Below, piece after piece: positions 37,721 to 60,595 of a stretch of DNA of 64,000 nucleotides. The DNA lies in NCBI GenBank assembly GCA_963806175.1, contig CAWDXA010000011.1, positions 666,065 through 730,064 on the forward strand. Reading direction: 5' to 3'. Made by a program: the position numbers and the translations under genes. This DNA comes from an uncultured Chloroflexia bacterium. GTDB lineage: Bacteria; Chloroflexota; Limnocylindria; Limnocylindrales; CSP1-4. Below the pieces are notes generated by a model. The model saw only the letters and a program-made list of their open reading frames with translations. It was not told where the DNA came from and made no database searches. Numbering within the stretch: the stretch's first letter is position 1; every line of letters begins with the position of its first letter.

Positions 37721-37760
37721 ATCGATTATCGATGATACGAGTCACCTACAGGCCCGTCAA
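37721..37760 (-). promoter_or_regulatory. promoter plus operator site A of the cupin/transketolase operon
   Basis: On the reverse strand: -35 TTGACG (37755-37760), 17-nt spacer, -10 TATCAT (37732-37737). The dyad ATCGATTATCGAT (37721-37733) overlaps the last 2 nt of the -10 and covers the expected transcription start. Confidence 0.6.
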
Positions 37761-37873
37761 GGCTGAATCGGCGGGGAAGCCGCGCGCGGGCTCGGCGTCC
37801 GCGAACAGGGACTGAGCGTCCCGCCGCCCGGCCAGGCCGGCGCGAGCGGCGGGACTCCCAGCGCGAGAGGAGG

Positions 37874-39401
37874 CTAGCTGTTGCCGGGGAAGACCAGGCT
37901 CAGGGCGCCACGCCGGCCGGGCTCCGGCCAGCGCTCGGTGACCATCTTCTGCTGGGTGAAGAAGCGGATCCCGTCCTCGCCGCGCATGGCCAGGTCGCCG
38001 AGCGCCGATTCCTTGGAGCCACCGAACGACAGGTAGCCGGCCGGGACCGGGATCGGCACGTTGACCCCGATCATCGGCACGTCGACCTCGAGCTTGAAGC
38101 GGCGCGCGGCGCCGCCGTCGGTCGTGAAGATCGCCGTCCCGTTGGCGTACTTGTGGCCGTTGACCAGGCCCAGCGCCTCGTCGTAGGTCGACGCCCGGAC
38201 GATCCCGAGGACCGGCCCGAAGATCTCCTCCTGGTAGATCTCCATGCCCGGCGTCACCTGGTCGAACAGGGTGACCCCCAGGAAGTAGCCGTCAGGGCTG
38301 TCGGGATGGTGGAACGGCCGGCCGTCGACGACCAGCTCGGCGCCCTCGGCCTCGCCCTTGTCGATCCAGCGGATGACCGATTCGCGGTGCTCGGCCGAAT
38401 AGAGCGGGCCCATGTCCATGCCGGATTCCATGCCCGGACCGACCTTGAGCCCGGCGATCCGCTCGAGCATCAGCGGGCGTAGCCGGTCGCCGGCGTCGCC
38501 GACCGCGATGAGCAGGGTCTGGGCCATGCAGCGCTCGCCGGCCGAGCCGTAGCCGGCGGCCACCGCGGCGTCGGCCGTCAGTTCCATGTCGGCGTCGGGC
38601 AGGACGATCATGGCGTTCTTGGCCGAGGTGTACGCGCCGACCCGCTTGCCCCGCTTGGTGCCGGTCTCGTAGACGTAGCGACCGACGGCGGTCGAGCCGA
38701 CGAACTGGATGGCGGCCACGTCGGGGTGCTCGACGATGGCGCTGACCGCCTCGCGGCCGCCGTACACGACGTTGAACACGCCGTCGGGCAGGCCGGCCTC
38801 CTTCCACAGCTCGGCCTGCAGCTGGGTCGCGCCCGGGGTGTGGCTCGACGGCTTCCAGACGAGGGTGTTGCCGCAGGCCAGGGCGATCGGGTAGATCCAC
38901 ATCGGGACCATGACCGGGAAGTTGAACGGCGTGATCGCCGCCGTGACCCCGAGCGGCTGGCGGAGCGTGAAGGCGTCGACCTTGGTGGCCACGTTGGGGG
39001 TGTTGACGCCCGCCAGCTGGACCGGCAGGCCGCACGCGAACTCGACCGTCTCGAGGCCGCGCAGGACCTCGCCCAGCGCGTCCGGGAAGGTCTTGCCGTG
39101 GTCGCGCGTGATCAGCGCGGCCAGCTCCTCGCGATGCTGCCAGACGAGCTCGCGGAAGGCGAAGAAGACCTGGCTGCGGGCGATGAGCGGGGTGTCCCGC
39201 CAGGCGGGGAAGGCGGCCCTGGCGGCGGCCACGGCGGCGATCGACCTCGCCGGCACCGCCGCGCGGGACGCGGCCGATGACCTGGCCGGTGGCCGGGTTG
39301 AAGACCGGCCCGGTCTGCTCCGGCAGGACCTCGACCGGGCGGCCGTCGATCCAGTGGCTGAGGATGGGCAGCGTCGCCGGCTGCGCGAGCTCGATGGTCA
39401 T
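37874..39401 (-). pseudogene. mmsA: CoA-acylating methylmalonate/malonate-semialdehyde dehydrogenase (MmsA/IolA-like), single 1-nt insertion near 39245
   Basis: N-terminus MTIELAQPATLPILSHWIDGRPVEV...NPATGQVIGRVP (ORF 38292..39401). Remainder in ORF 37874..39256: FPAWRDTP, ITPFNFPVMVPMWIYPIALACGNTLVWKPS, FVGSTAVGRYVY, SAGERCMA, EEIFGPVL. The junction reads GAT CGC (C) GCC GTG. Confidence 0.85.
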
Positions 39402-39436
39402 GGGTCCGGTCTCCTTGTGGCTTGCGGAGCGATGGA

Positions 39437-40532
39437 TCAGGCGATCCTGACGTCGGGATCGGGCAGGACCAGGTCGCGGATCGCGCCCTGGAGGTCGTGA
39501 TAGGACTTGACGAAGGTCCGCAGGGTCCGGGCGCTGGCCCCGAATCCCTCGAACTCGTCCGGGGTCATGCCGTCCGGCTCATAGGCTCGGCGGAAGTCCG
39601 GGATGCGCTCGTACAGGTCGGCGATGAGCCCCGGGTCCACCGGCTCGTCCATGCGCGGGAACGGCGTGATGCCGCTGGCGTTGAAGCGGACCTGCCAGGG
39701 GTAGGGGAGGGTCATGCTCACGTCGCCGCCGACCAGCTCCGTCCAGTGCAGGCGGTGCCGGTAGGCCGCGGCAAGCAGCCGGGTCCGATAGCCGCGCTCG
39801 CGGAAGATCCCGTAGGCCCGCTTGAACGCGGCCACTCCGGCCCAGTTGGGGGCATCCGGGTGGACGGCGAGGTCGTCGCGCTCGACGACGACCTTCATCC
39901 AGTCGTCCAGGCGCCCGATCATGATCGTGGCGATCGGGCTCATCGAGGCGACGTCGAGCCCGTCCGCAGACGCGCCGGTCCAGGGCGCGCTCGACGGCCT
40001 CGGCGACGGCGATCGCCTGCGGCACGGTGAAGCTGACGGTCCCGTTGATGTTGATGCCGCGGAACGTCGCCTCCTCGATCGCGATCAGGCCCGAGCTGGT
40101 GACCGGGAACTTGACCTGGATGTTCGGGGCGAGACCGGCGAACCGGGCGGCCTGGTCGACCATGCGGACGGGATCTCGATGATTGGCAGGGTTCGTCTGG
40201 ACCGACAGGCGACCGAGGCGGCCGCCAGCCCGGTCGAACACCGGCTGGAGGATGCCGGCGCCGCGGGCGGCCATCTCCTCGACGATGGCCCAGGTGATCT
40301 CGACCTCGGTCCAGGTCGGATTGGCCGCTGCCAGTTGGTGCACGCGGGGGACCCAGTGCCCCTTCTCCTTCTTCATGACGTCGAGGACGATGCTCGGGTT
40401 CGAGGTCGCGCCCGTCGCGCCGCGCTCCACGGCGTAGCTCAGCTCATCGACCGCGCAGGAGTCGTTCCAGTACTGGGTCGGCGTCTCCTGGGTCATGCGC
40501 AGCAAGGGACTGTCAGTGGCGGTGATCGTCAT
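39437..40532 (-). pseudogene. tal: transaldolase (about 365-aa type), single frameshift near 39950
   Basis: TQYWNDSCAVDELSYAVERGATGATSNPSIV, LSVQTNPANH, IQVKFPVTSSGLIAIEEATFRGININGTVSFTVPQAIAVAEA (ORF 39579..40727). It then continues as MSPIATIMIGRLDDW... (ORF 39437..39943). Confidence 0.85.
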
Positions 40533-59701: not shown

Positions 59702-59744
59702 CGACGGGTCGCGCAGCTCGGCCCGCGTCTCGGTGTGATCGGCG

Positions 59745-60530
59745 CTACTGGGTGGCGGTGAGTCCGCCGTCGATTCCGAGGATCTGCCCGGTCACGAAGG
59801 ACGAGGCGTCGGAGCAGAAGAAGAGCGCCGGCCCGGTGAGGTCCTCCGTTCCGCCGACTCGACCCAGCGGGATCCGGCTGACGATGGACGCCTTGAAGGC
59901 CGGGTCGCCAAGCAGCATCGCGACCTGCGGCGTGTCGACGAAGGTCGGGGCGATCGCATTGACCGTGATGCCGTGCTTCGCCCACTCGGTGGCCCATTGG
60001 CGGGTCAGCGAGCTGATGGCGCCCTTGGCCGCCACGTACGCCGAGTAGCCGGCATTGATCCCCAGCGTGGCACGGACGGAGCTGATGTTGAGGACGCGTC
60101 CGCCGCGTCCGCCGGCGATCATGGCCTTGACCGCCGCCTGCGTGGCGACCAGCGTGCTCCGGACGTTGAGCTCGTAGATCCAGTCCCAGGCGTCCCGCGG
60201 GTAGGCCTCCGCGTCGAACAGGACCTTGCCCGCGCCACCGCCCACGGCATTGACCAGGATGTCCAGCCCTCCGAACCGGTCGACGGTCGCGGCGACGACT
60301 CGCTCGGCATCGGATTCCGCGGTGAGGTCCGCCGAGAGCGCGAGGCTGCCGCCACCGAGGGCACGAAGCTGCTCGGCAGCGGCCTGCGTGCGTTCGTCGG
60401 ACTGGTCGACGATCGCCACGTTCGCACCGGCGCCGGCCAGGGCGAGGGCCAGCGACGATCCGATGGCGCCCCCGCCGCCGGCGACCAGGGCGGTGCGGCC
60501 GTCGAGCCGGAAGGGATCAAGCTGGCTCAT
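59745..60530 (-). CDS. short-chain dehydrogenase/reductase (SDR), first gene of the SDR/ADH operon
   Basis: Start chosen at MSQLDPFRLDGRTALVAGGGGAIGS (ATG 60530). The ORF-track start at 60557 would fall inside the operator. NISS, YVAAKGAI, IDGG. Confidence 0.85.
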   Translation of the reverse strand: MSQLDPFRLDGRTALVAGGGGAIGSSLALALAGAGANVAIVDQSDERTQAAAEQLRALGGGSLALSADLTAESDAERVVAATVDRFGGLDILVNAVGGGAGKVLFDAEAYPRDAWDWIYELNVRSTLVATQAAVKAMIAGGRGGRVLNISSVRATLGINAGYSAYVAAKGAISSLTRQWATEWAKHGITVNAIAPTFVDTPQVAMLLGDPAFKASIVSRIPLGRVGGTEDLTGPALFFCSDASSFVTGQILGIDGGLTATQ

Positions 60531-60555
60531 GCGGCGCACCTCTGTCTCGGTTATC

Positions 60556-60595
60556 ATCGATTATCGAGAATACGCGACGGGAACCTGCGGGTCAA
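60556..60595 (-). promoter_or_regulatory. promoter plus operator site D (SDR/ADH operon; shared divergent region with the E1/E2 genes)
   Basis: On the reverse strand: -35 TTGACC (60590-60595), 17-nt spacer, -10 TATTCT (60567-60572). The dyad ATCGATTATCGAG (60556-60568) overlaps the last 2 nt of the -10. It lies 76 nt upstream of the E1 ATG 60644. Confidence 0.6.

Follow-up and report, generated by a model that had tools for sequence, protein, structure and literature searches.

ATCGAT-N-ATCGAT dyads mark the promoters of a catabolic gene cluster in uncultured Chloroflexota and are candidate operators of its GntR/FCD regulators

We analysed a 64-kb stretch of DNA from an uncultured Chloroflexia bacterium of the Limnocylindria (contig CAWDXA010000011.1), hereafter the window, which has a G+C content of ~70%. 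A catabolic gene cluster spanning ~26 kb of it carries a 13-bp dyad, ATCGAT-N-ATCGAT, at four promoter sites (A to D), and encodes two GntR-family regulators with an FCD domain, GntR1 and GntR2. A sequence-only reading of the window had drawn attention to the four sites, taken them as the mark of a multi-operon regulon and named the two GntR proteins as candidate binders. Here we report the recurrence and conservation of the dyad, its position on the promoters and its linkage to the GntR genes, and weigh the proposal that it is the operator through which these proteins would repress the cluster.

Results

A catabolic gene cluster with four dyad-bearing promoters

The gene map was drawn from Pfam and NCBIfam searches. 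In window coordinates, the genes, promoters and dyads of the cluster are the following.

34810..35469, plus strand: GntR/FCD regulator 1 (GntR1, 219 aa), convergent with the transketolase operon
35500..37699, minus strand: cupin-transketolase operon, with the cupin gene at 37331-37699, the transketolase N-half (TKN) at ~36441-37330 and the C-half (TKC) at 35500-~36440 (Pfam)
37721..37733, minus strand: site A, putative operator dyad ATCGATTATCGAT of the cupin/split-transketolase promoter, overlapping the last 2 nt of the -10
37732..37760, minus strand: cupin-TKN-TKC promoter, TTGACG, 17-nt spacer, TATCAT; 10/12 consensus positions, with 0 such sites expected in shuffles
37874..40532, minus strand: TAL-mmsA operon, with a divergent transaldolase-like gene (TAL) at 39438-40532 and an mmsA-type dehydrogenase gene at 37874-~39401
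40576..40604, minus strand: putative TAL promoter, TTGCAG, 17-nt spacer, GATTAT; 8/12, weak by consensus, conserved
40579..40591, minus strand: site B, putative operator dyad ATCGATGATCGAT, within the spacer and -10 of the transaldolase-like/mmsA promoter
40712..40740, plus strand: promoter of the Liv-type ATP-binding cassette (ABC) operon, TTGACG, 17-nt spacer, TATGTT; 9/12 (consensus scan)
40741..40760, plus strand: site C, ATCGGT-A-ATCGAT-T-ATCGAA, three 7-bp-phased hexamers forming two overlapping dyads directly 3' of the -10
40978..45761, plus strand: Liv-type ABC transporter operon, with two permeases, two ATPases and a 468-aa binding protein (Pfam)
45956..58581, plus strand: core gene string, ten genes from the phosphoenolpyruvate (PEP)-utiliser protein to DUF1097
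47739..48458, plus strand: GntR/FCD regulator 2 (GntR2, 239 aa), candidate motif binder
53860..53872, plus strand: motif-like 13-mer TTCGATGATCGAT in the terminal codons of the cyclase gene, rejected as an operator
58610..60530, minus strand: SDR-ADH operon, with a short-chain dehydrogenase/reductase (SDR) gene at 59745-60530 and a zinc-dependent alcohol dehydrogenase (Zn-ADH) gene at 58610-59701
60556..60568, minus strand: site D, putative operator dyad ATCGATTATCGAG of the SDR-ADH promoter, sharing the final 2 nt of its -10
60567..60595, minus strand: SDR-ADH promoter, TTGACC, 17-nt spacer, TATTCT; 9/12 (consensus scan)
60614..63998 and continuing beyond, plus strand: E1-E2, a fused E1 alpha/beta (777 aa) and E2 of a 2-oxoacid/acetoin-type dehydrogenase complex

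The core string runs from a 590-aa PEP-utiliser swivel-domain protein (PEPu590) through GntR2, a ~300-aa protein and the flavin adenine dinucleotide (FAD), iron-sulfur (FeS) and molybdenum (Mo) subunits of a xanthine-dehydrogenase-family Mo-hydroxylase. It continues with a cyclase-family protein, a Zn-ADH, a dikinase resembling pyruvate phosphate dikinase (PPDK) that has no PEP/pyruvate domain, an SDR and DUF1097. The mmsA product scored 588 bits (cutoff 448.5) with TIGR01722, the CoA-acylating methylmalonate-semialdehyde dehydrogenase model.

The dyad recurs beyond chance expectation

The window was scanned with ATCGATNATCGAT (ATCGAT-N-ATCGAT, 13 bp), a match being any occurrence with at most one mismatch. 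Six matches were found, starting at 37721, 40579, 40741, 40748, 53860 and 60556, against 0.23 expected from dinucleotide-preserving shuffles, and none of 100 such shuffles gave six. These counts bear out the earlier judgement that the recurrence is improbable by chance. Mismatch numbers were bimodal, with six matches at zero or one mismatch, none at two and 16 background matches at three. The lone hexamer ATCGAT was not enriched (21 occurrences, 20.25 expected); the signal lies in the 7-bp-phased pairing of hexamers. A search of the window for weaker sites upstream of PEPu590, GntR1 and DUF1097 yielded none with two mismatches, and none with three upstream of PEPu590 or DUF1097; two three-mismatch matches upstream of GntR1 (34602 and 34806) stand at the same level as the 16 background matches.

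Five of the six matches make up sites A to D, whose coordinates and sequences were given correctly in the sequence-only reading. Its description of the dyad as always intergenic holds for these four sites and fails for the sixth match (53860-53872), which falls in the final codons of the cyclase gene, with the ADH start 30 nt further on. In the related loci described below, the equivalent of this match always occupies the same codon position, at 21 nt from the end of the cyclase tblastn match, and is conserved as the peptide SM(I/V)DP. Only eight loci carry the motif there, and the neighbouring codons are conserved anyway. Since the codon position is fixed and the motif is present in this minority of loci, we regard the match as a coding coincidence and rejected it as a fifth operator.

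Two isolated ATCGAT hexamers are explained by a 15-bp tandem duplication, GGGCTGGAGATCGAT, present in two copies at 34556-34590 at the 5' end of the ABC-2 ATPase open reading frame (ORF).

The dyad is conserved upstream of orthologous operons

A genome scan with one genome per species, seeded with the peptide LGTSQAPVR from GntR itself, identified 568 places encoding a GntR relative. The best 80 of these 568 loci, with flanks of up to 10 kb, were retained as a sample of 1.28 Mb, mostly from Limnocylindria. Across this sample the motif had 223 matches, against 0-6 in first-order Markov simulations. When window proteins were mapped onto the loci by tblastn, 214 of the 223 fell outside orthologous coding sequences, and eight of the nine coding exceptions were at the cyclase 3'-end codon position already mentioned. 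A cruder ORF-based test, with the window included, flagged 18/229 matches, several of them in stop-free upstream extensions of the TAL ORF. The motif is thus ~94% intergenic in the related DNA and does not occur at similar density inside genes.

The dyad was conserved upstream of orthologous operons across GntR identities of 62-86%, and ~70 uncultured Chloroflexota genomes related to this one carry it at the corresponding promoters. Occupancy, scored as a motif within 400 nt upstream of a gene in the relatives' loci, was highest for TAL (48/49), LivH (26/28) and DUF1097 (13/15), followed by cupin (18/31), E1 (3/6), PEPu590 (20/64), SDR (4/14) and GntR1 (5/23). No motif stood upstream of the internal genes AldDH, TKN, SBP, unk300, CoxM and PPDK. 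This restriction to the first genes of operons agrees with the multi-operon regulon proposed earlier.

In the 80 loci plus the window, 136 two-hexamer and 50 three-hexamer arrays were counted. The outermost dyad bases (positions +/-6) were the least conserved, which reduces the core to TCGAT-N-ATCGA. The cluster itself is conserved, its proteins being roughly 60-95% identical across the related Chloroflexota loci that were examined (tblastn), and the string conserved across the 80 loci corresponds to window 45956-57198, from the PEP-utiliser protein through the truncated PPDK. The three-hexamer promoter stands immediately before the core string in most relatives, whereas the window has the Liv operon between the two.

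Some further features of the relatives may be recorded here. In most of them the three-hexamer promoter drives UPF0261 and PEP-hydrolase-like genes, or DUF1097, before the PEP-utiliser gene (e.g., locus L009, 6044-8145). The UPF0261/PEP-hydrolase-like pair is absent from the window, with the Liv operon in its place. An EamA transporter gene of L009 also carries sites. Four loci with the cluster (L019, L035, L040 and L066) bear the titles of bins outside the Chloroflexota (Deferrimicrobiaceae, Sulfomarinibacteraceae, Steroidobacteraceae and Dormiibacterota); these labels probably reflect mis-binning rather than horizontal transfer.

The dyad overlaps core promoter elements

Promoters of the sigma70 type with a 17-nt spacer had been read at all four sites. 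A consensus scan returned the identical hexamers for A, C and D, and the promoter at B fell below the scan threshold. The TTGC -35 element and the geometry of promoter B are nevertheless conserved in relatives (cccTTGC ... ATCGATSATCGAT(K)ATA). The placement of the dyad at the 3' end of the -10 was likewise as first described: it begins 2 nt inside the hexamer at A and D and right after it at C. The dyad of site B occupies the 3' part of the spacer plus the first 3 nt of the -10.

The same arrangements recur in relatives. Thirteen of 16 unique cupin promoters combine TTGACS and TAnnnT across a spacer of 17 or 18 nt, and their dyad begins 2 nt within the -10; 3/4 SDR promoters show this arrangement too. 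The dyad of TAL promoters lies in the spacer, and the divergent 'core' promoter has three phased hexamers just 3' of its -10. In motif-anchored consensus sequences only the -35, the -10 and the dyad were conserved, the flanking intergenic DNA being variable. Overlap of the dyad with the core promoter (-35 to +1), which the sequence-only reading had called repressor geometry at A, C and D, was thus found in the window and, for cupin, SDR and TAL, in the relatives; the transcription starts are predicted ones.

These data bear on whether the recurrence might be non-regulatory, that is, due to chance, a promoter-intrinsic element, a small dispersed repeat or a hairpin in the 5' leader RNA. The motif does contain -10-like hexamers (GATTAT, TATCGA), and at A, C and D the self-complementary 13-mer would be transcribed into the leader. 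However, chance is excluded by the shuffle and simulation counts, and the similarity is confined to about 13-20 bp. An Rfam scan of the whole window matched no RNA element at the sites, its sole match being a tRNA at 27272-27356. Moreover, the position of the dyad relative to the -10 differs between promoter classes, so that it is no fixed promoter element, and site B lies upstream of the start, so that the dyad is not in the RNA there. We consider a non-regulatory origin very improbable.

DNA looping between divergent operators was also considered. Rayleigh tests for helical phasing on the unique distances from the TAL operator to the divergent one gave p ~0.05-0.08 at best, uncorrected for the periods scanned, and were not significant; looping is therefore without support and was rejected.

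Two cluster-encoded GntR/FCD proteins are the candidate binders

GntR1 and GntR2 are 65% identical, and their common LGTSQAPVREALR stretch, spanning the recognition helix, was confirmed. Each combines an N-terminal GntR winged helix-turn-helix (PF00392; E 3.9e-15 for GntR1 and 4.8e-14 for GntR2) with a C-terminal all-helical FCD domain (PF07729; E 3.6e-27 and 3.1e-24, respectively). Close homologs of GntR2 (at least 120 listed, all 71-100% identical) come almost only from Chloroflexota metagenome-assembled genomes. Apart from these two, no DNA-binding protein was detected from 34.8 to 64 kb of the window.

Linkage of the motif to GntR2 was complete: in 62/62 loci with enough upstream sequence, a motif-bearing promoter precedes GntR2, and all annotated genes between the two are on the same strand. 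In one locus from which the PEP-utiliser gene is absent (L042), the motif stands directly upstream of GntR2, at 89 nt. In 16/20 loci GntR1 lies next to the transketolase operon, in convergent orientation. This linkage supports the earlier naming of the GntR/FCD paralogs as candidate binders. Two adjacent GntR1-like genes were seen in some relatives (L007, 435-2407; L058, 624-2573), which brings the number of regulator paralogs to as many as three per cluster.

The nearest solved structures are FCD-type GntR proteins, and the operator consensus of the FadR subfamily is TNGTNNNACNA, with deviating members also documented (PMC11472048). The dyad had been set apart from the canonical FadR-type box. 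It does differ at +/-2, where the core TCGATNATCGA has A/T instead of T/A; it is nonetheless closer to TNGTNNNACNA than was thought, keeping 4/6 defined positions (T-5, G-3, C+3 and A+5). The recognition helix here reads SQAPVREAL, and Arg takes the position of its Gln in 4/5 best-matching solved relatives (SRGPLREAI, SRMPVREAL, GRNSVREAL and SRTPVREAL); the fifth, McbR, has S-I there. We infer that the Gln substitution may go with the changed bases at +/-2.

On these grounds we propose, at a probability of about 0.72, that the dyad (core TCGAT-N-ATCGA) is the operator of the cluster-encoded FCD-domain proteins GntR1 and GntR2, which would repress the catabolic promoters. Several points weigh against this proposal. 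The assignment of the motif to GntR1/2 rests on co-localisation, and since the loci were retrieved with a GntR seed peptide, the co-occurrence of motif and GntR is partly circular; the recognition helix is identical in all loci because the seed imposed it. The motif departs from the FadR consensus at +/-2. The three-hexamer arrays are overlapping dyads, so that one dimer cannot fill both simultaneously. No motif precedes GntR1 in the window, and one does so in only 5/23 relatives.

Autoregulation of GntR2 in the window is also uncertain. The core string has no operator of its own there, and neither a consensus promoter nor a terminator was found in the gap between SBP and PEPu590. Two strong GC-rich hairpins without a T-tail (45762-45900; dG -92 kcal/mol, z = -5) separate the ABC binding-protein gene from the PEP-utiliser gene. 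Control of GntR2 by site C would need read-through across both hairpins.

Some of these points favour an alternative in which the dyad is the operator of a factor encoded elsewhere, such as a global carbon-catabolite regulator, and the GntR proteins bind another sequence: GntR binding is deduced from loci selected via GntR, positions +/-2 of the motif depart from the canonical GT-N-AC core, and GntR1 lacks an upstream motif in the window. Against it, the motif is confined, in 1.28 Mb, to promoters of one cluster, GntR2 belongs to a motif-headed string in all 62 loci, and the anchored promoter consensus holds no second conserved dyad. In addition, the length, symmetry and 7-bp half-site spacing of the motif fit FadR-type dimers. 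We therefore judge an elsewhere-encoded factor unlikely.

A repression model with a variant FadR-type box

In the model that we favour, repression by GntR1/2, one dimer would occupy each 13-bp dyad, its two winged-helix domains reading half-sites 7 bp apart, as in FadR-type proteins. Placed over the -10 and start (A, C and D) or in the -35/-10 spacer (B), the bound dimer would block RNA polymerase. A small-molecule effector at the FCD domain would release the repressor and thereby co-induce four to six transcription units of one catabolic cluster, namely cupin-transketolase, TAL/mmsA, Liv ABC with or without the GntR2-carrying dikinase/Mo-hydroxylase string, SDR-ADH and possibly E1-E2. The last of these may also be under site D, which lies 46-58 nt upstream of the E1 start codon. 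Having the same recognition helix, the two paralogs probably share operators while sensing different ligands.

GntR1/2 might instead bind the dyad and activate, or act dually, at some promoters such as the weak TAL promoter or E1-E2. Some FadR-family proteins work both ways, activating and repressing (FadR on fabA). The TAL hexamers TTGCAG/GATTAT are poor (8/12) and escaped the consensus scan, and direct reading of the sequence upstream of E1 found no good plus-strand -35 element. However, the sites all fall on the -10, start or core spacer of 17-nt-spacer promoters, a position that occludes RNA polymerase, whereas activator sites normally lie upstream of the -35. Activation or dual action is accordingly quite unlikely in our view, and we retain repression as the preferred mode.

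The proposed system resembles the FadR/FCD repressors (Rigali-type TNGTNNNACNA; e.g., LldR, TGGTCTGACCA) in its GntR winged helix and FCD domain, its odd-centred palindrome of ~11-13 bp, the position of the operator over the core promoter and the linkage of regulator gene and targets. It differs in its box, GA...TC here and GT...AC there, in the helix Gln where 4/5 best-matching solved relatives have Arg, and in its half-sites, which are palindromic hexamers arranged in twos or threes at a 7-bp phase.

Among characterised regulators, DipR of Alcaligenes faecalis, a GntR/FadR repressor acting on six promoters of a dipicolinate catabolic cluster (PMC11472048), offers a parallel. In both systems a single catabolic cluster has a short palindrome on a number of its promoters (six for DipR, four here), with sites overlapping the -35, -10 or transcription start site. 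DipR is autoregulated and effector-released, and its effector and pathway are known, whereas the present system is predicted from sequence; the DipR box is GWATAC (GTA-TAC type), and the phylum is another. AphS and BphS, GntR-family repressors of phenol/biphenyl genes, bind the operator AwATATCGATATwT at multiple sites (PMC6449761). They share with our system the family, an ATCGAT-built operator and multiple sites per regulated region, theirs in an aromatic catabolic cluster. Their palindrome, however, is even-centred on a single TATCGATA, whereas here two ATCGAT flank an odd central base; they are from Betaproteobacteria, and the comparison with them is by operator.

The closest solved structure is that of PmiR from Pseudomonas aeruginosa (PDB 7XP0; E 1.8e-25 over residues 11-207). 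PmiR is likewise an FCD-type GntR protein and needs two adjacent sites on its target promoter (PMC9728974). In contrast to our dyad, the sequences reported to be protected by it at pqsH/pqsR are GC-rich and unrelated; it senses 2-methylisocitrate and its helix reads SRGPLREAI. A literature search combining GntR, ATCGAT and palindrome returned only the AphS/BphS description, and no paper linking Limnocylindria with GntR was found.

Other features of the window

Upstream of the cluster lie the housekeeping genes tig, clpP and clpX, followed by a two-component system and an ABC-2 exporter. The tRNA gene at 27272-27356 (Rfam, 52 bits) is just upstream of trigger factor, within a long ORF. The mmsA gene has an apparent frameshift on the minus strand at 39245-39255 (near 39250), where the window reads GAGGTCGATCGCC and relatives read GAGGTCGACGCC. 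An initial 48 codons, beginning with the ATG at 39401, agree with the N-terminal sequences of relatives; the main ORF (37874-39256) then follows in another frame. Either a 1-nt assembly indel or a pseudogene would account for this.

Discussion

Sharing the logic of DipR and of AphS/BphS, a local GntR repressor acting on several catabolic promoters would be a known, indeed textbook, mechanism with a variant box, and as such unsurprising. Several gene products, the mmsA dehydrogenase among them, offer leads to the pathway that it would control. The 590-aa protein is similar to rifampin phosphotransferase and PigC-type enzymes in their substrate-binding and swivel part, and the 712-aa PPDK-like protein to PPDK in its ATP-grasp and His domains. 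In many relatives the cluster also includes a UPF0261 protein and a PEP-hydrolase-like protein. The aromatic kinase MarK belongs to UPF0261, and acetovanillone is phosphorylated by heterodimeric dikinases in other bacteria (PMC12624787). Solved transaldolases are no more than distant relatives of the transaldolase-like protein (E about 1e-9). The ~300-aa protein had no Pfam, NCBIfam or Protein Data Bank (PDB) match, and PDB and NCBIfam searches with the binding protein and cupin gave no pathway clues. Phosphorylation-initiated catabolism of a hydroxylated, possibly aromatic, substrate is at most a reasonable guess.

A bolder reading, which we put forward as a tentative and on balance doubtful one, is that the genes under the operator form a catabolic pathway not described before and widespread among Limnocylindria of soil and freshwater. 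Such a pathway might comprise a two-protein PEP-synthase/PPDK-like dikinase, joined in relatives by a MarK-type UPF0261 kinase, the three-subunit molybdenum hydroxylase and a cyclase-family hydrolase, with transketolase/transaldolase-type C-C cleavage feeding mmsA. It might be governed by two to three paralogous FCD sensors sharing one operator code of 7-bp-phased self-complementary hexamers, so that the inputs of different ligands would be combined at shared promoters, perhaps by register-shifted or heterodimeric binding.

The element is real and helps to annotate an abundant uncultured lineage. Together with its candidate repressors, TCGAT-N-ATCGA constitutes a testable regulatory code for a large gene cluster, and could be used to delimit the regulon in related genomes and hence to assemble the full pathway. 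The two FCD domains would serve as handles toward the inducing metabolite. Finally, the change of the helix Arg to Gln, alongside that of the box from GT/AC to GA/TC, may provide a natural specificity variant for the rules of FadR-type recognition.

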